Virus record (IMG/VR): IMGVR_UViG_3300025251_001740 | Span: 1 to 39,438 of that record | Strand: one strand, 5' to 3' | DNA length: 39,438 bases | Source: a virus | Taxonomy: Duplodnaviria; Caudoviricetes | Shown: in pieces, positions 6,883-39,438 of the stretch | How the letters are laid out: each line of letters begins with the position of its first letter | Position numbering within the stretch: position 1 is the stretch's first letter | Translations under genes and position numbers: made by a program | The notes under the pieces: model-generated | Database searches by the model: none | What the model saw: the letters and a program-made list of their open reading frames with translations, nothing else | What the model was told of the DNA's origin: nothing

Positions 6883-8611
6883 TTCGTTCCCCTCCCATTG
6901 CTGACATGCCACCACCAAATAATCCCATAAGGATTAACAGAGGTAGTAACATCTTAAGATTACTAGTAGCTTTAACTCCTGACTGATGAGGACCCCCACT
7001 CATTAGCTTCTGGAATATGTTAGGTGCCTTTTCTATTCCTTTACCTGCTTTCCATGGCATTGACCCTTTAACTGGTTCTGGCATTCCAGCATGTTGAGCA
7101 GTAATCTGTTGTGCTCTTTCTGCAAGAAGTCCTCTTCTGCCCGCTTCTTCTACTGCCATTCCCATTTGACTGGGGTCTGGACGAATCCCGACTGGTGGTC
7201 TAGGAACATTAGGATCATACATTTGTGGTCCTGGTCGTGGTTGTCCGACTCCCTGTGGAATAATAGGCTCTCCCGGGGTTGCTCCCATAGACATTAAAGG
7301 ATGTGGAGCCCGTGGTCTTGTAGTAATAGGACCTTGTCGTTGTCCTTGTGGTGCTCCCGCAGCCCGTAACTCGCCCAGCCTTGTTTCCATGGCTACCTTT
7401 CTCTTAGCGGGTTCTAGTTCTCTTGCTGCTGCAGCTCCTCGTTGAATTTGAGATGCTGTGGGCTTACCTGTTGCAGATCCTTCTGCTAATAGTATTTCTC
7501 CTACATATGCTCCTCTTGCAGATTCCTTTGACATTCTGCCGGAAGTATAGAAACTTACTTCCTTAGTTAGAACGGGGTTACCTGCTTTAGCAACCGCATG
7601 TCCTAGCCAAGTTGATTCTGGTAATCTAAGAATTCTGTTAAGAGATGTTGCCATGCGATCTCTTTTAGCAGTTAAAATCCCTACTTCATCCTGAGCAGAT
7701 TTCCATATCTGCTCCAACGTCTCATTTACTACAGTAGAACTAACTTTCGGAACACTCTTACCTTTTGGTGGAACCATGCCCGGACCGACTCCTGCTGCTG
7801 CTTTTGGTAGTGATGCAAGATACTCTTGACTCCATACAGTATAAAGTTCTTCCGCAGTAGGTATCACCATTCCTGCAAGACCCTTCTCCAAAGCCATGTA
7901 GTCTGCATACATTCCTACTGCCTGACCACCTCTTTTTATATTCGCTGCAGATTCTGTGGTGCCTGGAACTAATCTAATGAGACTCTCTCTAGTAACATCT
8001 CCAACTTGAGGTCTTTTAAACCCCCCGCGTTTGCCTCTTTTTGTGGCGATAGCCTTTAGTGCGGGTCTATCTAAAGGCAACGCTACTGTTTTCGAACGAG
8101 CATATCTTTTTTGTGTTCCTGCAGGTGTGGCTCTACCTCTATATGTAACATCCTTAGTTGTTGGACCCTCAACAATAGATGCAGTAGGATCAACTACAGA
8201 TCTCTGTTGTGATAAAGGTAGAACATCTTGCAGAACCTTTCCTTGGGGACTAAGAGCCGAAACTCGTCCACCCGGCATAATAGATTCGTGACCTGCATAT
8301 TTACCAAACTCAATACCTCTAGAAGCTCCCGGCTGCCAACCACGATACGCATATTCCAAATGTATGATGTCGTCATATAACACACTGATATGTTCAGGAA
8401 GTAGTTTTTGCCCGGATTGTAAGAAAGGGGTTAAATAGTGAGTGAGTCTCATCTCGGCTGCAGCAGCACTTGCTGCACCTGTACCTCCACTAAGATACTT
8501 ACCCATTTGTTTTGAGGTTAGTCTCCTGCTCCTTTTCTTCTTCTTCTTCTCACCTTGAGCAGGTGTTCCTTTAGCAACTTGGATAACTTGTCCGGTTACA
8601 TCACGAGGCAT
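6872..8611 (-). CDS. Hypothetical basic protein with C-terminal hydrophobic segment (internal-virion-like)
   Basis: 579 aa; strong SD AAGGAGGT; KKKKKRSRR patch; C-terminal MLLPLLILMGLFGG. Confidence 0.65.
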   Translation of the reverse strand: MPRDVTGQVIQVAKGTPAQGEKKKKKRSRRLTSKQMGKYLSGGTGAASAAAAEMRLTHYLTPFLQSGQKLLPEHISVLYDDIIHLEYAYRGWQPGASRGIEFGKYAGHESIMPGGRVSALSPQGKVLQDVLPLSQQRSVVDPTASIVEGPTTKDVTYRGRATPAGTQKRYARSKTVALPLDRPALKAIATKRGKRGGFKRPQVGDVTRESLIRLVPGTTESAANIKRGGQAVGMYADYMALEKGLAGMVIPTAEELYTVWSQEYLASLPKAAAGVGPGMVPPKGKSVPKVSSTVVNETLEQIWKSAQDEVGILTAKRDRMATSLNRILRLPESTWLGHAVAKAGNPVLTKEVSFYTSGRMSKESARGAYVGEILLAEGSATGKPTASQIQRGAAAARELEPAKRKVAMETRLGELRAAGAPQGQRQGPITTRPRAPHPLMSMGATPGEPIIPQGVGQPRPGPQMYDPNVPRPPVGIRPDPSQMGMAVEEAGRRGLLAERAQQITAQHAGMPEPVKGSMPWKAGKGIEKAPNIFQKLMSGGPHQSGVKATSNLKMLLPLLILMGLFGGGMSAMGGERNAA

Positions 8612-8927: not shown

Positions 8928-11176
8928 GGTGAAGGTGAAGTCGCAGGACCTCCAAAAAATTCATCCGCTAAAAGTCCTAGTTCGCCTTCCATTTCTGCTT
9001 CTGATGTAGCCGAGTCTTGAGTGTGAAGTAAACTCATATCCCCTTGATCAAAAGCATAATCCAGTTCCGTTTGTTCTGCTGATCGGACAAGTTTTTCTAA
9101 CTCAGCAGTAATATCAACTGCGGATTGTCCTGATTGTTCTAAGAGTGAGGTGTCTAAACCCTCAAGCATTCTTGCTGCAAAAGCTTCAGCCACACCTTCA
9201 GGAGCCCCTGCCATAGTACCACCAACTGCTTTCTTTGCAGCACCCATTATCTTATCTACAATATCATCAGGAATATTCCCCGGTGTCATGCCGGGGTTTT
9301 TAGCAATAAAAGTATTTATCGCTGAATCTAAGAACGAGTCTTGTAAAATATCAGCCCCCCCATAACCACCCCCAATAGCGGTATTCCAAGCACCAGCGAA
9401 TTTCCCCATCATGTCTTGTAACTGAGTTGCAGACTTATTAAATTCTTCAATTGCCTCTTCACTCTCATCGTCAAGTCCAAATCCCCCGTCCTTGGCATTT
9501 TGAATTATTGTTCTAGAAGTCATCGTGGGATCCCCTGCTGCTGAAAACCTAATTTCATTTCCCCAACTATCAGCCATTGCATCTAGAACTTGAAATGCAA
9601 TACCTCCATCACGACTAGCAATTTCGCCCATTTCTTCTCGCATTATTTTCATTGCAGCAGGAGTTTCATTCGCTGCTTGGAACTTCAGAAAGGAATTAAC
9701 AGCAGACAAAACATTATCTCCCATTCCCGGACTAGTAGCATTCCAGTATTGAGCCAATTGTCCCGCATACCTCAAAAAAGATGTTTCACCACTTACTGCC
9801 TTACCTGACATTATCTCCTCTTGCCCAAAAGTATTAAAAGCAACGGGACGGATATAGTCTCCCCCTATATTTCCTGTTATATCTCTTATCGTATCAGGAT
9901 GGAATAAAGGATTCCATGTAGTACCTTCAACCACACCATCAACCCAATTACGAGTAGACATTGAATGACCTTCGGCTTCAATTTGTTCTGGACTCATTCC
10001 CAATCTTTCCATAGCACCTACAAGCCTAGCTTCATTCCAATCTTCTTGAGAAACCCCTTGAAGATTAGCCATACTTTCTTGAAATGCGGCACCACCACCA
10101 AGACCTGCATCATCAATTTGAGTTGTACTAAAACCCATATCCAAAAGTCCACTTCTAACTTGTTCTTCTTCTGCTGATCGCCAACCATTAACTAGGGATA
10201 CTAATTGTTCACCTTTTGCTATTAATCCCCCTTCGCCTTTTCTTGCTCCCCTCGTATCATAACCTTTAAATATTTTCCAAAATTCATCGTAACCCGCTAG
10301 AGATTCCGCTGATGTTCCCGAAGGAACTTGGATTCCACCACCACCAGCAGGTGCTCCAATCATAGCAGTAAGCCAAGGATCAAAATCCTCTATGTCTTGG
10401 AACTTTCGTTGAAACCATGCACCAATTCCTTTACCTTTAGATGTCGTAACACCTTCCATATCCATATTCAAAAGGATGTTGTGCCATGCTTCCGTATTAT
10501 CCATGATAGAGTTACCAAAACCAGCAGTTACATTTAAAGCTGTTTGCCCCACTTGCAAACCTTTTTGTACCCTTTGTTGTAGTATTGCCCACATGTCTTG
10601 AATTGAAGTATCAAGTGTTCCCATGTCTCGTTCAAGAGCCCGTTGTTTTAAAGTTGTATCAAATGCATTATCTGATACATCTTGTAAATAGTCTTTCCTT
10701 AATTGGGCTATCTCCTCTAACCACTGTTGTTTTTGGTCTCTAGTTCCAGCGACTCCAGAGGGGTAACTAGAAGCAAGACTATGTGCTTGATAGTTAAATG
10801 TATTGCTTCGGTTTGCATTATTGTTAACCGATTGCATTCCATACTTCCTTAACAATGCATCCCTCCGAGTCTCATATTTCTTCCACTTAAGGTCATCTGA
10901 TCTTTGTTGATCAATATTCTTTTGTTCAAATGCTCTCTGCTTATCAAATCCTCGCTGTGTCATTTCCTGACCACGAAGAGTAGCAGCGCGTTGTGCTTCC
11001 GCATTACGTTCAGTAGCCTCAAGAGTATTTTGTGCTTGTTGAGCCCGAGCAGCATCAGCAGCAGCAGCGTTTGCAATCTGTTGTGCTTGAAGACCAAGCC
11101 TTGCCTCCTCTGCTTGGTTTGCTGCTGTCAGTCTTTGAGCTTCTAATACTTGTGGATCTACTGCTTCGAATCCCAT
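8924..11176 (-). CDS. Putative DNA-ejection/internal virion protein
   Basis: 750 aa; Ala/Gln-rich coiled-coil N-terminus, acidic helical body; lies after the tail gene; SD AAGGA. Confidence 0.55.
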   Translation of the reverse strand: MGFEAVDPQVLEAQRLTAANQAEEARLGLQAQQIANAAAADAARAQQAQNTLEATERNAEAQRAATLRGQEMTQRGFDKQRAFEQKNIDQQRSDDLKWKKYETRRDALLRKYGMQSVNNNANRSNTFNYQAHSLASSYPSGVAGTRDQKQQWLEEIAQLRKDYLQDVSDNAFDTTLKQRALERDMGTLDTSIQDMWAILQQRVQKGLQVGQTALNVTAGFGNSIMDNTEAWHNILLNMDMEGVTTSKGKGIGAWFQRKFQDIEDFDPWLTAMIGAPAGGGGIQVPSGTSAESLAGYDEFWKIFKGYDTRGARKGEGGLIAKGEQLVSLVNGWRSAEEEQVRSGLLDMGFSTTQIDDAGLGGGAAFQESMANLQGVSQEDWNEARLVGAMERLGMSPEQIEAEGHSMSTRNWVDGVVEGTTWNPLFHPDTIRDITGNIGGDYIRPVAFNTFGQEEIMSGKAVSGETSFLRYAGQLAQYWNATSPGMGDNVLSAVNSFLKFQAANETPAAMKIMREEMGEIASRDGGIAFQVLDAMADSWGNEIRFSAAGDPTMTSRTIIQNAKDGGFGLDDESEEAIEEFNKSATQLQDMMGKFAGAWNTAIGGGYGGADILQDSFLDSAINTFIAKNPGMTPGNIPDDIVDKIMGAAKKAVGGTMAGAPEGVAEAFAARMLEGLDTSLLEQSGQSAVDITAELEKLVRSAEQTELDYAFDQGDMSLLHTQDSATSEAEMEGELGLLADEFFGGPATSPSP

Positions 11177-15400: not shown

Positions 15401-15796
15401 ACTAGCAACCGCCAACTTTATAGTTTCTCCTCTTTGCCAGTTTCCACTGTCATATCCCAGAATCCTAAAATCTATAAAGATGTCTGATAGATGAGTCGCT
15501 AGTGGTCGTACTGCTCTATAAATAAACCCGAAACCATATTGATCGGTTCCTACTCTAAAAGAGATAGGAAAGACATCTGTGATTCTGGACGAAGTAGAAT
15601 GATTGGCTTCACCGTCAAGAGAAGAGAACTCATGTACCTTCTTAAACCCCGGAAAAGGTCTTATCCCTGTCTTAGTAGAACAATCTGCTCCTACCACTTC
15701 ATAAGCAGATTCCTTAGGAACCGAAGTCCTACTACCACTCTTATTTTCTGTTGTTTTTAATAGAGGATAATTCCAGTTTAACTTTCGCTCATTCAT
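12431..15796 (-). CDS. Tail tube/nozzle protein (P22 gp10/T7 gp12-like) with two inserted domains
   Basis: 1121 aa, beta-rich; segments FRWSSIRETSPELFP and EGYGLV...TFYVNDKG resemble podovirus nozzle propellers; precedes ejection-like genes. Confidence 0.6.
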   Translation of the reverse strand: MNERKLNWNYPLLKTTENKSGSRTSVPKESAYEVVGADCSTKTGIRPFPGFKKVHEFSSLDGEANHSTSSRITDVFPISFRVGTDQYGFGFIYRAVRPLATHLSDIFIDFRILGYDSGNWQRGETIKLAVASADPMEVVSFGRYIYTMVKGVEPILFYVNYVVRAAATASLTIANDSQITQGDTVTLIPADGSPTSHVITANDTLESDSFPYKFDIGNGSADATELSLRTVIDAQDDYTAEEVPTDNTSCTVTQTVLGSAGNTTIVLSLANAGCITKTNFTGGAGIAASDYEVVIEEDTGPGLQPKILSPEDDTAIGSLPIPDNGAPGNVHVFVSEGIGSYWDSSPAPQLQTDLTDFKAGNYAVAYVLEDPDTGRKTSLSEVAQVKEEQIVTAATGTIQLITDTNDKDDLHSEFIVINDGINAAVTFTFEGDSAGDTSGSGTAYTVNIEAASTDAEFADELMDAINLANTNNDLKITATRDDFTLTLTHDENTLDGNSLMSTSDSTFIKLTGMAGSTELSPANIGVEIVYDATKFSRAYIYRSVRVQDAGGAYSASIVQLDQIITLNDYIASDQTGTGIVDGDYVRAFYYFTLDDLALIYQDPYTDRSIFDENMPKAGTATEFDGILLSSNIEGDGSVGVSDEDRPLDKFRGLGEFRWSSIRETSPELFPPENYYVPSKISNQVITFEKSGGAVLGFGNNVVMHITRETTGTISYLKVLPIHEGYGLVDKKAVKSVGPHTFYVNDKGLKSIDAQGRLDSLHALDGVIDGWSSNFSDLSIAYDSQSSVLFILNPTLKEAVLMWFSTSMISELHDMPFDLVKTGQWYSDLSDEDSDLTERAFFLQNQPDAGTANDDFDACLWVMDSKRESVISGAASSDFNNEKRITLLHHTGDTRFKVDSATSSTVTISTDSTHHGGLQPLLVDTDAEWAGAFIYIIASADETKIGEKAQIRSISGLVITVINKSSGFSPVAGDRLGLSPIYVRWAGSLLGYNDPLDPQNPTPSGLHVIRLIDSLSTYFSEVSGAPTTDTVDTADLVYTGLLFEGDSDTAVSDGIPKNLSGTIVKSINAGESTNWVSFEKYGVRGVALSPGVEVFCPDLDFRLLSVIIEGKLLPTLRTERST

Positions 15797-16280
15797 GGTT
15801 ACATTCTACTCCAATAGTTCTTTGTGTCGCCCCTACAACCGTAGTATATGCGGGTACATCTTTTGATACAACTGTACCTGCTCCTATCATTGAATAAGCC
15901 CCCACTCTTATCCCCGGCAATATTATCGCACCAGCTCCGATGCTGGCACCTTTTTCTATTATAACCCCTAAAGCCTCCCAATCATCAACTCCTAACTTAT
16001 TACCTTCCTCATCTATAGCTCGGGGATGCTTATCATTTATCAGCATCGCTTGTGGTCCTATGAACACACCCTCTCCCAACTTTGCGGGATAGTAGATAAG
16101 AGCACCGTTTCCGATCTTACTATTGGATCCTATTTCTACATGGTGGTCTATGTAGGCATTGGCTCCTATCGTCACATTATCTCCTATCTTGGATTCCTCT
16201 CTTATGTGTACCCAGTGCCAAATAGAACAACCCTCTCCTGCTTTTGCTCTGTTATCTACTATTGCATGTTTTGAGATCAT
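15789..16280 (-). CDS. Hexapeptide-repeat (left-handed beta-helix) acetyltransferase, sugar N/O-acetyltransferase type
   Basis: Hexapeptide repeats (KIGDNVTIGANAYI, EIGSNSKIGN, SIGAGAIILPGIRVGAYSMIGAGTVV); start MISKH at 16280 by ATGA overlap. Confidence 0.88.
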   Translation of the reverse strand: MISKHAIVDNRAKAGEGCSIWHWVHIREESKIGDNVTIGANAYIDHHVEIGSNSKIGNGALIYYPAKLGEGVFIGPQAMLINDKHPRAIDEEGNKLGVDDWEALGVIIEKGASIGAGAIILPGIRVGAYSMIGAGTVVSKDVPAYTTVVGATQRTIGVECNHE

Positions 16281-16888
16281 TTCCAATTCTCTCTTATTTC
16301 TAAAATTATTATTTCTACTGTATCTACCTGTTTTTTCCAAAGGATATTATTTGAACCTAAAAGACTACTTAGATTTAAAAAGTCAAAACTTGATCCGTTA
16401 TTTATATCTCTATTCGTATTGTCTATGTCGGGGTGGTGAGAAAATAATGCGTATTTGAACCTTGATAAATGCTGATCCAGAAATTTTTCTACATCAGATA
16501 GTTCCTGGTGAAATAGTACATCCTTACAAATTAGAAGATCTGCAGGGGTAAAATTATATTCTAATCCGCAGCACTCTGTAAAGTGAACGGTTCCATCAAA
16601 ATTAGAATGCCTCTCATTATTATCACAAACTAAACTCTTTACTATGTCATATCCAAGGTAGGTTGCACCATGAAGTTCTACAAACCTCATCCAATTAAAG
16701 TCTCCACATCCCACATCAACAATGCTTCTAATCTCCTTTTCCTTTATAAAGTCAGAGATTACCTCCACTAGATTAAACTCTTCTATGGCTCTTAGGGTTG
16801 AACCACGACCACAAGGAGTTTCTTCACCTCCACTACACCACTTATTATTCTCAACGATATTTGTAAATTTATCCTTTAAAGAATTCAT
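16277..16888 (-). CDS. Class I SAM-dependent methyltransferase
   Basis: IVDVGCGD motif I, YLGYDIV, DLLICKDVLFH; start MNSLK at 16888 by ATGA overlap. Confidence 0.85.
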   Translation of the reverse strand: MNSLKDKFTNIVENNKWCSGGEETPCGRGSTLRAIEEFNLVEVISDFIKEKEIRSIVDVGCGDFNWMRFVELHGATYLGYDIVKSLVCDNNERHSNFDGTVHFTECCGLEYNFTPADLLICKDVLFHQELSDVEKFLDQHLSRFKYALFSHHPDIDNTNRDINNGSSFDFLNLSSLLGSNNILWKKQVDTVEIIILEIRENWK

Positions 16889-17532
16889 TTCCAATTTTCC
16901 TGTATCCAATCTAAATCTAAATTGTTGGGCTTTGGTTTACCGTGAAAGTAAACAATTCTAGCATCCCCTAAGTCCCTATCCTTTACGTGTACCTTATAAC
17001 TTACAATCGAGCCCGGCAGTATATTGTCCCACAATCTAGGTCTAATATGTTCCCTTAACCACTTCATCTCCGAAAACTGACCAAACAACTCATATAAAGG
17101 ATCGTTTAAGTGTAGTTCCTTTTGATCTACCCACTTATCCCATACATCTGAATTGTCTACGGCAACAACAGCATTACATATAGAGGGGGGATGAATAGGA
17201 TCAAGTGGTGCTATCAATCCCTTGGCTTCTTCTATCTCTTTAAGGGGTCCTACCATGATGGTATCTAGTCCAACAAGAAGTGCTCTGTCCTGAATAATCT
17301 CGGGTCTGAACATCTCCATCAAGCAGACCCATCCTCTCTCCTCATGCTTAAAAGGATATATCTCTATATCATCCTCGAATCCTTCCTCGAAGTCTGTAAT
17401 AACTACAAGTTGTGGATTCTCGCTCCATCTCTTCAAGTTACGATTTAACCTATTTACCCACTCAGGATTATATTCTGCATCAAAATCTATAAATCCATGT
17501 GGGGGTTTGAATAGGGTACATATATACCTCAT
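16885..17532 (-). CDS. Small GT-A type glycosyltransferase (GT8-like)
   Basis: VVITD, LVGLDTIMVG at the DxD position, CNAVV, C-terminal IVYFHGKPKP. Confidence 0.7.
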   Translation of the reverse strand: MRYICTLFKPPHGFIDFDAEYNPEWVNRLNRNLKRWSENPQLVVITDFEEGFEDDIEIYPFKHEERGWVCLMEMFRPEIIQDRALLVGLDTIMVGPLKEIEEAKGLIAPLDPIHPPSICNAVVAVDNSDVWDKWVDQKELHLNDPLYELFGQFSEMKWLREHIRPRLWDNILPGSIVSYKVHVKDRDLGDARIVYFHGKPKPNNLDLDWIQENWK

Positions 17533-18578
17533 TGTTTATTTGGTATGCTGTACCAACCATGAGTATCTTCTAACTCTGGCACAGTGGCCCTCTGTATTGC
17601 TTCTTCATAGGACATAAAAGGAAATAATTCCAGTTTCGAATCTTCCTTGCAGTTATAGATTTGGAACCCTGATCTATCAAACTCAGGTTTTAACTTTTCA
17701 AGAACCTCCCCAATCCAACGATACATATCATTATTCTTATCTCTAACTATGGGCTCTCTGAGTTCGTCCCAAGCATATGCTCCTTTATTCATATCGTTAG
17801 GCATTTCCCAATCACATCCTAATAAGTAAACTTCTTGGAAGCCTAGATAATAAAGAGTCCTCAAAGCTCCAAACATTGTTACTCGGAATCCGCCTTCAGG
17901 TTCTATACCTTTTACTCCTCCCCCCCAATTAGCAGATTTTTCTGTAAACCAAGTCTCGGGATTAAAGGTTGTATTATTAGATAAGAACCAACAGTTAGGT
18001 GCATCCTGTGCCTTAATACCCATGTCTACAATCTCACCCCCCACTCTATGATTCAATCTGTGCTCTTTACGATGCCACGGGACAATCTTCATGATAGAAG
18101 GATCCATCCATCCTTGATTGTGGAATCTTCCCGGAGTATCGAATCCAATCCAGATATCGGGTTTAACCATGCACCACGAATTATTCATCGCCATACTCAT
18201 GACCCCTCGATTATCAAGGAGAGAGAGATCCAAATCATTAAGAGACGGACCGCTGCACACGAGGAATATCTTTGCACCCTTGTAATGGTTCCACCACGAG
18301 ATCCCTTTAGAATCTTTATCCCAAAGAAGCATATCAGACTTCCTCGGATTCCACTTCTTCTCTTCCATAGGAGGAAGCATAGGAGTGGGGGATTGTAAAC
18401 CCTCCATATGAGTAGCAAGAGCAAGAAGCGTATTGTTCACTTCTTTCATTTGTCTAGACATTTTCATGTCTAATTCGGTTAGTTTAGTTTGAAATGCCTG
18501 AGCCACGGGCATTGACATATCTACTTCTGGTTCTTGATATTCTCTAGGTTTCTTAACTGCAGTTTTTATTGTCGCCAT
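17529..18578 (-). CDS. DUF115/Maf-like putative glycosyltransferase with N-terminal coiled extension
   Basis: IFLVCSGPSL, MAMNNSW...PDIW, YYLGFQEVYLLGCD, QIYNC motifs; SD AAGGAG. Confidence 0.7.
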   Translation of the reverse strand: MATIKTAVKKPREYQEPEVDMSMPVAQAFQTKLTELDMKMSRQMKEVNNTLLALATHMEGLQSPTPMLPPMEEKKWNPRKSDMLLWDKDSKGISWWNHYKGAKIFLVCSGPSLNDLDLSLLDNRGVMSMAMNNSWCMVKPDIWIGFDTPGRFHNQGWMDPSIMKIVPWHRKEHRLNHRVGGEIVDMGIKAQDAPNCWFLSNNTTFNPETWFTEKSANWGGGVKGIEPEGGFRVTMFGALRTLYYLGFQEVYLLGCDWEMPNDMNKGAYAWDELREPIVRDKNNDMYRWIGEVLEKLKPEFDRSGFQIYNCKEDSKLELFPFMSYEEAIQRATVPELEDTHGWYSIPNKQ

Positions 18579-36933: not shown

Positions 36934-38337
36934 ATGTCTGTTGGAACTCAAGACAGACCACTAACTTCTGCAGAGCCCATGAAAATTGCAGATGCACTGT
37001 TGAGAGGAGTATTTAGAACTCCCTCTGGAAAGTGTGGTCTATGGGCATTTAGAGGAGACTTCTACCAATGGTACGGGGACCGTTGGGAGCGAAGAGAAAT
37101 AGAATGGTTGGAAGATCTTTGTTGGAAAGAACTAGAAGATTCGTACTATCAAGAGATAGGTAATGATGGGTTACCTCGGGTCAGAAGGATCGCACCCAAC
37201 AAGCAGAAGATCGACAACATCGTTAGGGGGCTGGCTGCTAGAATTAGGATCCCCCACTCTAACATCCCTATATGGTTGAATGATCCCAGTAGAGATGCGG
37301 GTAGTGTGATCGCGTTTCAGGATGTATTGGTGGATGCGAAGACGGGAGACATCGTGGAGAGAACCGAGGATTGGTTTGATCCGGTAGTTATTCCCGTGGA
37401 TTACAATCCTGCTGCCGAATGTCCTCGTTGGATGAAGTGCCTGGAAGAGTGGGGTAACAATGATCCAGAGTGGAGTATGTTGTTGATGAGATGGATGGGG
37501 TACTGCCTCATGAATCATAGAAGACATGCTAGGTGGTTACTCATGTATGGGAAGGTCAGGAGTGGTAAGGGTACTATTGGTAAAGTGTTACAGTCCCTGT
37601 TGGGGCGCGATGCGTTTATGAATAGTAGTTTAGACGATTTGTCTAATGATTTTGGGTTGGATGGATTGGAGCATTCTAGGGTTCTTTGTATCAGTGAGGT
37701 TAGTGAGCTGGATGGAAGAGAAGGAGAAAAAGCCACAAGAGTACTGAAAAACATAATTGGACAAGACCCCGTTACCGTGAATGTCAAATACAAGAGACAG
37801 ATGAGAAACATGATAATCAATGCAGCACCTATAGTGCAGGCTAATGAGATACCCTCGTTACCTAATAAGGGTAGAGGTCTTAGTAGTAAGATGCTGGTGC
37901 TTCCTTTTGATGTGAGTTTCGAAGGTCATGAGGACCCGTATCTGATTGACAAGTTGTTGGGGGAGTTAGAGGGGATCGCTGCGTGGGCTGTGCAGGGTGC
38001 TATTGACTTGGAAGCCGAAGAAAACAAGTTCCCGTTGCCTAGTAGAGCAAGTGATACGATACAGATGTACCACCTGCAGAACAATCCGTTTGATTACTTC
38101 TTGGAAGAGAGGTTCATAAGGAGAGAGAGTGGGTTCGTGGCTACAGACCTATTGTGGCTACAATGGAATAATTGGTTGAAAACGAACTCGATAAAGAATC
38201 TTCACGTCGCAAGGAATCAATTGTCGATAAAAATAGAAACGCAAAGTAGTTGGGAAGTGAATAGACATCGACCACACGGGGGAAAGAGGGGCTTAAAAGG
38301 TTTGAGCCTCCGTAAAAGTTTCGAGGACTTGTGTTAA
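36934..38337 (+). CDS. D5/P4-family SF3 helicase (primase-helicase C-terminal type)
   Basis: Walker A GKVRSGKGT, Walker B VLCISE, LKNIIGQD...NVKYK, IVQAN; YNPAAECPRW segment; SD AAAGGA before ATG 36934. Confidence 0.88.
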   Translation: MSVGTQDRPLTSAEPMKIADALLRGVFRTPSGKCGLWAFRGDFYQWYGDRWERREIEWLEDLCWKELEDSYYQEIGNDGLPRVRRIAPNKQKIDNIVRGLAARIRIPHSNIPIWLNDPSRDAGSVIAFQDVLVDAKTGDIVERTEDWFDPVVIPVDYNPAAECPRWMKCLEEWGNNDPEWSMLLMRWMGYCLMNHRRHARWLLMYGKVRSGKGTIGKVLQSLLGRDAFMNSSLDDLSNDFGLDGLEHSRVLCISEVSELDGREGEKATRVLKNIIGQDPVTVNVKYKRQMRNMIINAAPIVQANEIPSLPNKGRGLSSKMLVLPFDVSFEGHEDPYLIDKLLGELEGIAAWAVQGAIDLEAEENKFPLPSRASDTIQMYHLQNNPFDYFLEERFIRRESGFVATDLLWLQWNNWLKTNSIKNLHVARNQLSIKIETQSSWEVNRHRPHGGKRGLKGLSLRKSFEDLC

Positions 38338-38355: not shown

Positions 38356-38649
38356 ATGGAATATGAAAAGATCTTTGAGGTTGTTGGTTGCCCCGCATAC
38401 AGTGAAGACGAAGAGGGCACAATTAGGATATGGGTTGCACTTACTATGAGTAAAGACAACAAAAGTCCGAGGGAGGCCGATCCCAAGATGCTGTGGGCTC
38501 TATTAAGGACCAAGTATAGGGACGGGGATGAAATGGTAGATGAGGATGGTCTTATTTGGGATGTATGGAGAAAAGAGGGAGGGTATGTTTTGTACTGTAT
38601 TGAGACTAAAGAGATAATTGATATCCCGATTCCTGAAGAATTGAAGTGA
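38356..38649 (+). CDS. Small acidic hypothetical protein
   Basis: 97 aa; SD AAAGGA; directly follows the helicase. Confidence 0.65.
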   Translation: MEYEKIFEVVGCPAYSEDEEGTIRIWVALTMSKDNKSPREADPKMLWALLRTKYRDGDEMVDEDGLIWDVWRKEGGYVLYCIETKEIIDIPIPEELK

Positions 38650-38671
38650 ACCAGTAGTGAACCGGATGACC

Positions 38672-38894
38672 GATCCGGGTCAATCCTCGTTTTTAGACTG
38701 GAATCGGGGTTTGATCCGGGTGTGCCACATGTACCGGGTATTTCTGTACTCTTTATATATATTACTATACGCGCAATAGTTAGAAAATACCCGGATCACC
38801 TGGATCAAGAGCCAAAATCGAGCTTCTAGGTACCTAGAGTGGGGATTATTGAACCACGCCATGCGGTACATACCCGGATCGCAACTGGATCACC
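38672..38894. other. Putative replication origin (inverted iterons around an AT-rich core)
   Basis: GATCCGGGT at 38672 and 38713; ACCCGGATC at 38789 and 38872; variants at 38798 and 38884; AT-rich core around 38751-38769. Confidence 0.6.
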
Positions 38895-39057
38895 CGCGTT
38901 TTTGAGCTAAAAATTCCTAGAGAGGACTGCCCTTTCGTCTACAATCAACAGAAAAACACAGGGGGCGACGGGGGGTGACGTTCTGTACACAGATGGGTCT
39001 GCCATGTTTACCGTGGCACGACGCGATGTTTTCCTGTTGCCTGCGACACTTTTACAA

Positions 39058-39301
39058 TTTTACCCCCATGATCAGACACCGCAGTTAGAGTATGACGACC
39101 CGACTAACTCATCTCCCCCTTTGTCGCAGGTCACCGCTCTCCCGCAAGACGTATCGGAACACAAACCGATGTCGGGACGGCAACGGCAGACCCACATTCA
39201 TTTGCGGGCTACGAGCGGCAACCTGCGACAACGGAGGCGGTGAAGATGAGTCAGTCGGCTCGTCAAACTATAATCGCGGTCTCAGAACATGGGAGGTAAA
39301 A
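39058..39301. repeat. Long imperfect inverted repeat (~90-100-nt arms); candidate structured RNA or ssDNA element
   Basis: 39058-39147 aligns to the reverse complement of 39202-39301 at about 76 positions by manual alignment. Confidence 0.9.
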
Positions 39302-39303
39302 CC

Positions 39304-39438
39304 ATGAAAAACGAGAACCCTTCAGAAAGCACGGCTGTTGCTAAGCCCGTAGTAGATATGAATCAACTAGCACTGAAAGCAGTAGTTGAAACCACTTCGA
39401 AGAAAGGTAACCCGACACTGGAAAATGCGAAACAGTTC
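39304..39438 (+). CDS. Hypothetical protein, truncated by window end
   Basis: SD GGGAGG then ATG; 45 open codons MKNENPSESTAVAKPVVDM...; TATAAT at 39269-39274. Confidence 0.6.
   Translation, partial: MKNENPSESTAVAKPVVDMNQLALKAVVETTSKKGNPTLENAKQF

Follow-up and report, generated by a model that had tools for sequence, protein, structure and literature searches.

A long imperfect hairpin beside a predicted phage origin is one of a recurring, strand-biased set of first-gene mirrors

INTRODUCTION

What does a long, rod-like inverted repeat do beside the predicted origin of a tailed phage, where one of its arms contains the leader of the first early gene, and on which strand does it act? The question arose from an earlier note on the window, by which we mean the whole 39,438-nt virus record analysed here (completeness estimate 71%), in which a hairpin of about 245 nt was offered either as a new structured RNA or as a single-strand signal working with an SF3 helicase and iterons. 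The rod is real, and it proves to be one short example of a gene-mirror structure that recurs, with a strand bias, next to a predicted origin of phage replication. The two readings fared differently: the single-strand signal gains support from the strand bias of the relatives' rods and from the origin layout, and the plus-strand RNA alternatives lose ground.

GENOME SETTING AND PREDICTED ORIGIN

The minus strand of the window encodes terminase, collagen-like tail fibres and an SU10 adaptor. A second record (G002) overlaps its right end at 99.6% and extends 16 kb further, through small early ORFs and then uracil-DNA glycosylase, PolA, a PD-(D/E)XK nuclease and a Sak4-like protein. The sequencing runs containing the window stretch are labelled marine or aquatic; a search for the host of the phage returned none. 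Beside the collagen-like tail fibre genes, positions 15789-18578 hold a hexapeptide acetyltransferase, a methyltransferase, a glycosyltransferase and a sialyltransferase-like gene, sugar enzymes that suggest virion glycosylation. The features at the right end of the window are as follows.

36934..38337, plus strand: SF3 (D5/P4-type) helicase, the predicted origin-loading initiator-helicase (D5_N E 2e-8, DUF5906 E 5e-11)
38356..38649, plus strand: 97-aa ORF between helicase and iterons, with similar ORFs after the helicase in close relatives
38657..38890, no strand assigned: predicted origin with opposed short repeats, at 38675, 38716 and 38734 one way and at 38789 and 38872 the other way
38912..38975, no strand assigned: conserved cis element, present family-wide (A-tract/CCTAGA box, fixed spacer of ~45 nt, two G runs)
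39050..39147, minus strand: mirror arm, non-coding, in which the leader of the first early gene is copied as a degenerate reverse complement, from the alignment of the arms
39148..39201, no strand assigned: apex of 54 nt with a small hairpin at 39148-39173 (-6.1 kcal/mol), from the folds
39202..39311, plus strand: gene arm, leader and first codons (TATAAT 39269-39274, SD GGGAGG 39291-39296, ATG 39304)
39304..39438, plus strand: first early ORF, truncated by the contig end (156 aa in L003 8371-8841)

The PHROG matches of the SF3 helicase cover only the helicase part of primase-helicases, and neither Pfam nor PHROG detects a primase domain in it; its orthologue in the complete genome G005 has a weak C-terminal Pox_D5 match (E 0.008). 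Prim-Pol (PF09250) and Toprim_2 (PF13155) have no match in the window record (G000), G002, G004 or G005; for other types of primase, the search consisted of Pfam scans of the larger ORFs. The 97-aa ORF that follows has no Pfam or PHROG match. In L004 (7652-8434) and L011 (7706-8470), an inserted minus-strand ORF of 254-260 aa separates the helicase region from the iterons; it presumably encodes a family 2 glycosyltransferase, judging from a motif recognised by eye.

The opposed repeat sets, found with motif patterns picked from the window and its relatives, occur in all 13 close loci examined (the window and 12 relatives), and in the window they enclose an AT-rich block at about 38750-38789. 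The most AT-rich 40-mer lies at or between the repeat sets in 12 of these 13 loci, L021 being the one that differs. This arrangement recalls the origins of SaPIs, in which opposed short repeats surround an AT-rich block downstream of an SF3 helicase gene, and at which SaPI-type SF3 Reps load with a preference for the leading strand (PMC9371898). The likeness is one of layout: at least two repeats stand on each side of the AT block, the two sets pointing in opposite directions, downstream of an SF3 rep gene. Unlike the SaPI arrangement, the phage has a small ORF between helicase and repeats and no primase gene found upstream of or fused to the helicase, and the accessible text mentions no hairpin of the present kind (PMC9371898).

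The conserved element beyond the repeats has recognisable equivalents in most related loci, through the family's range of 37% to 66% GC. From its place just ahead of the early genes, it may serve packaging or mark a terminus.

THE ROD AND THE GENE THAT IT MIRRORS

The pairing claimed for the arms, at about 76 positions, is borne out: in the plus-strand fold, 39058-39147 and 39202-39301 pair at 76 Watson-Crick and two G.U positions around the 54-nt apex, whose own small hairpin is likewise present. The pairing can be extended to 39050-39147 and 39202-39311, which takes in the ATG. Folded as RNA, 39050-39310 reaches a minimum free energy of -127.6 kcal/mol on the plus strand (z -12.2) and -150.7 kcal/mol on the minus strand (z -12.7), so that the comparison with shuffles on both strands that the earlier note had suggested comes out at z around -12, with none of 200 shuffles as good. 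Predicted DNA folds of 39058-39301 give -71.2 kcal/mol for the plus strand (z -10.4) and -80.0 kcal/mol for the minus strand (z -15.0). No other 260-nt segment of the window folds as well, the runner-up reaching -86 against -113.

Could so regular a structure be an artefact of assembly or amplification? That had been thought unlikely, and it is now rejected: each of four runs yields one contig across the full rod, contigs of four further runs cover it with no joint or variant inside, among the matches listed, and the identical 244 nt are present in three other records (L019, L028, L096). A MITE finds no support either: the rod is present in a single copy, with no second one in G000, and the arms of different rods are unrelated. 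That the rod belongs to no recognised family also stands. Rfam gives no match at gathering score anywhere in the window or at the rods of L003 and L011, the nearest being a generic long-hairpin match to MIR447 (33.8 bits against a cut-off of 200); phage DNA records hold no match to the rod; and blastn finds none at E 1 in 72,556 plasmid records.

The two arms of the window rod align with 84 matches, 14 substitutions and six gap events, all six of which put extra bases in the gene arm. The TATAAT and the GGGAGG described for the right arm are both there, the latter ahead of the ATG at 39304. The protein of the first early ORF has two distant homologues at 34-36% identity; its model reaches a pLDDT of 42.5 and has no fold match. 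Identity as an SSB is unsupported for the first genes that carry rods: they have no Pfam or PHROG match at E 0.001, the models (pLDDT 44 and 42.5) give a best Z of 3.1 and no Foldseek hit, and the Atlas and PDB sequences offer nothing usable. Only the first gene of L043 has weak OB/SSB matches (E 0.002 and 0.012). The first-gene slot is hypervariable, with no pairwise match at E 0.002 among the five rod-bearing genes, and the first ORF after the conserved element (in L020, L026, L073, L043 and others) encodes many unrelated small proteins, several of them with an acidic tail and a final F. Further into the early region, L003 (~9190-9250) and L006 (~8500-8560) have in common a 63-nt intergenic motif at 84% identity, which forms a small hairpin with a paired change and whose 3' part resembles window 39248-39269, directly ahead of the TATAAT.

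RECURRENCE IN RELATIVES

From 85 helicase-anchored loci (69 and 16), 41 distinct ones were kept after removal of duplicates, of loci with no recognisable element and of those with less than 450 nt after the element. A long inverted repeat follows right after the element in five: L019 (the window's phage), L097, L085/L109, L105 and L107. These rods span 247-818 nt and score 102-321, against at most 40.5 in their own shuffles and 61 for the next locus, and they occur in five of the 13 close loci and in none of the 28 distant ones. In every one, the mirror begins 68-134 nt past the CCTAGA box, the gene arm comprises a leader of 58-102 nt followed by 8-325 nt of the coding region, and the left arm, which is non-coding, matches its reverse complement with gaps; the mirror of L107 covers a whole 105-codon ORF.

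What recurs is the arrangement. The arms of different rods are unrelated, with cross-scores of 16-42 against 102-312 with their own partner, and the rods are thus not an ncRNA family conserved in sequence: the five share none, which also leaves nothing on which to count ordinary covariation. The window hairpin has no diverged homologue that could be found, nor any sequence homologue outside the window's phage, and searches with the first-gene families returned the same phage only, or nothing. How closely a mirror follows its gene can be gauged from L108, which ends ahead of its gene, within its mirror. That mirror scores 78 against the L107 gene (shuffle maximum 46) and 46 against the L107 mirror, and the L107 mirror scores 312 against its own gene; each mirror therefore stays close to its own gene, whether by tracking or by repeated duplication. 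A fresh perfect copy at the rod position is absent from all 41 loci.

L025 stops at the start of the L105 mirror (L105 2849) and L108 within a mirror, and assemblies may therefore break at rods and undercount them. The cultured pelagiphages HTVC023P and HTVC010P have no mirror (in a scan up to the last 92 nt of HTVC010P). A weaker, imperfect repeat of 161 nt in the distant locus L061 may be an early or decayed mirror. Other structured elements dot these early regions. L003 has a second hairpin of 119 nt (10059-10177) before a SLOG-family gene, with short words common to it and the first rod; its apex differs from L010/X5 at 10119-10122, and its plus fold is slightly better. L006 carries a manA RNA motif at 9965-10157 (RF01745, 73.8 bits). 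Five rod-free relatives (L100, L102, L006, L009, L026) repeat a cassette in early intergenic regions ahead of early genes, consisting of a branched hairpin, a short conserved spacer, a T-tract and then an SD. The leaders of one distant subgroup (L037, L041, L043, L046, L061) are strongly structured, with z of about -4 to -7.

STRAND BIAS AND MISMATCH PATTERN

On which strand does the rod fold? Pooled over the five rods, transition mismatches produce 38 wobbles on the minus (template) strand and six on the plus strand; three other alignment settings give 64:24, 33:7 and 39:13. Chance alignments in the 36 non-rod loci lean toward minus too (166:105, or 0.61). The pooled 38:6 has p 9e-7 against 0.5 and p 2.5e-4 against the 0.61 null, with p 0.003-0.03 against that null for the other settings, and simulations of strand-symmetric decay have a mean of 0.51, with none of 400 reaching 0.86. 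Of the 38 minus wobbles, 22 come from L107; the other four rods together give 16:5 (p 0.027 against 0.5, p 0.12 against 0.61), and among them L109 goes in the opposite direction, 2:3. For the window, the earlier note had counted five of six transition mismatches in favour of the minus strand. The minus excess is there, at a count that varies with the alignment (4:1, or 7:2 with ragged ends) and is not significant alone (p 0.38), and it is the pooled relatives that support the hint. A cruciform in supercoiled duplex DNA, which predicts no strand bias, is disfavoured by the same pooled count. Folding energies tell a similar story: all five rod leaders fold better on the minus strand after shuffle correction, as RNA and as DNA, a preference absent from non-rod leaders (9/27 as RNA, 12/27 as DNA). 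A family-wide C/A skew after the element, which would hint at lasting single-strandedness, is absent from the non-rod loci, where C exceeds G in 16 of 34 and A exceeds T in 18 of 34.

Which arm changes is also apparent. Substitutions in the pooled rods are spread flat over the codon positions of the gene (28/29/35), and in 87 of 100 gap events the extra bases stand on the gene side and the mirror is the shorter arm; therefore the non-coding arm is the one that changes. Gap events number 100 against 135 substitutions, and the longest perfect runs are 9-12 bp over the five rods. In L107, a longest run of 9 in 306 pairs is shorter than chance (P 0.001; 0/400 simulations), as are the runs of L109 (P 0.008); even spacing of the breaks is not significant in the window (P 0.17), L097 or L105.

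Do the mismatches reveal the chemistry of the folded strand? Read on the minus strand, the 76 isolated mismatches comprise 20 G.A, 19 G.T, 11 T.T, nine C.T and seven G.G, together with the rarer A.A (seven), A.C (two) and C.C (one). In a model of mismatch choice over these 76, DNA-minus energies improve on the null by a likelihood ratio (LR) of 11.4 and RNA-minus energies by 3.1. Both plus-strand energy models have a negative slope (LR 13.5-13.6), meaning that stabilising mismatches are avoided there, and of 21 isolated G.U pairs only two are on the plus strand. The mismatches thus tend to favour DNA and speak against a structure of the plus strand. A model of base preference in the mirror with four parameters, in which C is avoided, does as well (lnL -77.0 against -77.2 for the DNA energy model), so that either selection or biased mutation or repair could lie behind the mismatch pattern.

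PROMOTER CONTENT

A -10 hexamer matching at five or six of six positions lies in the paired leader of four of the five rods (P 0.007), accompanied by poor -35 boxes, L097 having none, and in three rods the mirror loses it. Opposite the TATAAT of the window stands TCTAAC, which differs at the second and sixth positions, and the window mirror offers nearby only a hexamer that matches at four of six. The second and sixth positions of the -10 box are the bases most needed for opening by sigma-70; these mismatches would therefore leave the leftward copy in the mirror silent in duplex DNA and the fold partly pre-melted. Canonical -35/-10 boxes are not rebuilt in the fold, the best -35 in the window gene arm matching at three of six. 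Upstream of the rod, 38918-38945 is a weak promoter match at chance level.

COMPARISON WITH KNOWN SYSTEMS

Masai and Arai reportedly worked on the single-strand promoters Frpo and ssi in 1997. Quasipalindromes corrected by template switching and the T7 M-hairpin, all of them imperfect inverted repeats near a replication or processing site, also invite comparison; the phage rods differ in their much greater length, their strand bias and their link to the first early gene.

Frpo and ssi are single-strand promoters of the leading regions of conjugative plasmids, and their descriptions (PMC9849209, PMC11541004) present a long imperfect stem-loop of the template strand in front of the first-expressed genes, with a proposed dual use of the transcript as mRNA and primer RNA. 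Both traits have a counterpart here, and a stable template-strand stem-loop upstream of a gene is found in prediction, at -80.0 for minus against -71.2 kcal/mol for plus. The differences are equally clear. The window rod resides in a tailed dsDNA phage (terminase, tail genes) with no conjugation and has no blastn match in plasmids; the phage rods do not rebuild canonical -35/-10 boxes, their sequence is not conserved between instances, and their second arm mirrors the gene leader, up to a whole ORF in relatives. On the fold-back reading the rod would work like Frpo without being a member, because it lacks rebuilt canonical boxes, similarity in sequence and a conjugative element around it. The single-strand origins (sso) of rolling-circle plasmids, phages and ICEBs1 depend on RNA polymerase and, as described in PMC4595007, consist of folded ssDNA, specific in orientation, that is proposed to draw in host RNA polymerase and so start priming, as the rod might. 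Unlike them, the phage rod lies on the leading-strand template next to a predicted iteron origin of theta type that has an SF3 helicase, and is one long rod over a gene start, where an sso in that description consists of several short stem-loops (PMC4595007). No rolling-circle nicking Rep appears among the 30 window, 12 G002 and 28 G005 ORFs scanned. A literature search, with subscription papers mostly outside its scope, returned no description of a gene mirror in a tailed phage.

A FOLD-BACK OF THE TEMPLATE STRAND AND ITS RIVALS

Five observations, then, have to be explained: that there is a rod, where it stands, that it returns in relatives with unrelated sequence, that the pooled rods are biased to one strand and that the layout resembles an origin. 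The best explanation, which we hold tentatively and short of calling it probable, is that the minus strand folds when the origin opens, giving RNA polymerase a duplex promoter for an RNA that is both first-gene mRNA and primer. The SF3 helicase would load at the iterons and move 3' to 5', such that the rightward hexamer would travel on the minus strand, the leading-strand template, and leave it bare: the mirror first, then the apex, then the template of the gene. The bared strand would fold on itself and offer a duplex promoter to host RNA polymerase, which would start at the -10 box, mismatched in the fold at positions 2 and 6. The transcript would serve as mRNA and as primer for PolA in rightward DNA synthesis, and where it covers coding sequence the mirror would take the place of the non-template strand and displace the mRNA. 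The many mismatches and bulges would protect the repeat from cutting or deletion and would also hinder the mRNA strand from closing over the ribosome-binding site that it carries. The main difficulty is that 36 of the 41 loci (eight of the 13 close ones) lack a rod and that non-rod leaders have no strand preference; the family must thus have other means of priming and of first-gene expression. Against a fold-back speaks the economy of the design: a primer needs tens of bases, for which a whole-gene duplex is excessive. In addition, ssDNA behind a helicase is normally short-lived and SSB-coated.

The strand bias alone does not single out DNA. A leftward minus-strand RNA across gene start and mirror would show the identical 38:6 and might fold to a bulged rod (RNA minimum -150.7 kcal/mol on minus), which would be either a masked antisense regulator or the leader of a transcript running leftward. 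The first-gene mRNA, a perfect complement of such an RNA, would invade at the bulges, and the bulged bases in the antisense arm (87 of 100 gap events) could seed the strand exchange, while a capped helix length would limit cutting by RNase III. We consider this unlikely, given that RNA-minus energies do poorly at predicting which mismatches occur (LR 1.1-3.1, where DNA-minus reaches 8.7-11.4), that isolated G.A mismatches (20) are as frequent as G.U (19), and that minus-strand promoter matches in L003 7700-10400 stay at chance level, with no terminator found and no Rfam match. About as improbable, in our estimate, is a mirror with no job, which template switching on the origin side would repeatedly make as an inverted copy and which copy-correction would keep similar to the gene; strand-biased mutation or repair, with selection against an mRNA hairpin, would then shape the mismatches. 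Patchy occurrence (5/13 close and 0/28 distant loci), lengths that vary from 247 to 818 nt and the fit of the base-preference model all sit well with such a by-product, and deletion bias explains the direction of the gaps. It accounts less well for breaks more evenly spaced than under neutral decay in L107 and L109, for gap events about two thirds as many as substitutions (100 against 135) and for the lack of a fresh perfect copy in 41 loci, and strand-biased correction would itself still require folding of the template strand.

Alternatively, the linear genome may end at or near the conserved element, and the minus 3' end, bared by replication or by nuclease resection, would fold back, which would protect the end, prime repair and keep the first gene readable. 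The T7 M-hairpin and the end hairpins of parvoviruses offer a comparison. The polarity fits, the minus strand's 3' end pointing left; an element with fixed family-wide spacing precedes the early block; the phage encodes a PD-(D/E)XK nuclease and a Sak4-like annealing protein; and several long contigs stop less than 900 nt from the helicase. Those stops are scattered and converge on no single base, however, contigs of the runs analysed pass uninterrupted through the region and the upstream repeats are laid out as an origin, all of which makes a genome end here quite improbable. Least credible of all, and in our view very improbable, is a mirror that acts in plus-strand read-through mRNA by covering the ribosome-binding site, which would keep the first gene silent until RNase III or an internal promoter intervened. 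The SD and ATG do lie inside the stem, the plus-strand minimum is still -127.6 kcal/mol, and the weak match at 38918-38945, at chance level, would be the upstream promoter. Plus-strand G.U pairs are avoided, though (6/44 pooled, 2/21 isolated), and the plus-strand energy models slope negative; the mismatch spectrum already makes such a hairpin unlikely, and the plus-strand readings of the earlier note, a translational control hairpin or an RNase III substrate, are disfavoured by the same scarcity of mRNA-strand wobbles.

IMPLICATIONS

Single-strand promoters have been described for conjugative plasmids and rolling-circle elements, and none was found for tailed dsDNA phages in the available text of the literature searched. 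If the template-strand fold-back holds, a phage in which no primase was detected would have a means of priming at its iteron origin and of coupling its first gene to the firing of that origin, and a non-coding sequence would follow a fast-changing gene through structure alone. A bolder and more doubtful version is that tailed dsDNA phages have repeatedly evolved a non-coding mirror that tracks the first gene, is adjusted through its mismatches for pairing on the template strand only and turns the whole gene into a transcribable duplex while the DNA is single-stranded; were it true, the opening of the origin would itself switch on first-gene expression and priming. Even if the mirror were a by-product, its strand bias would mark the exposed DNA strand in an uncultured phage. 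The family offers leader-only and whole-gene mirrors beside rod-free relatives.
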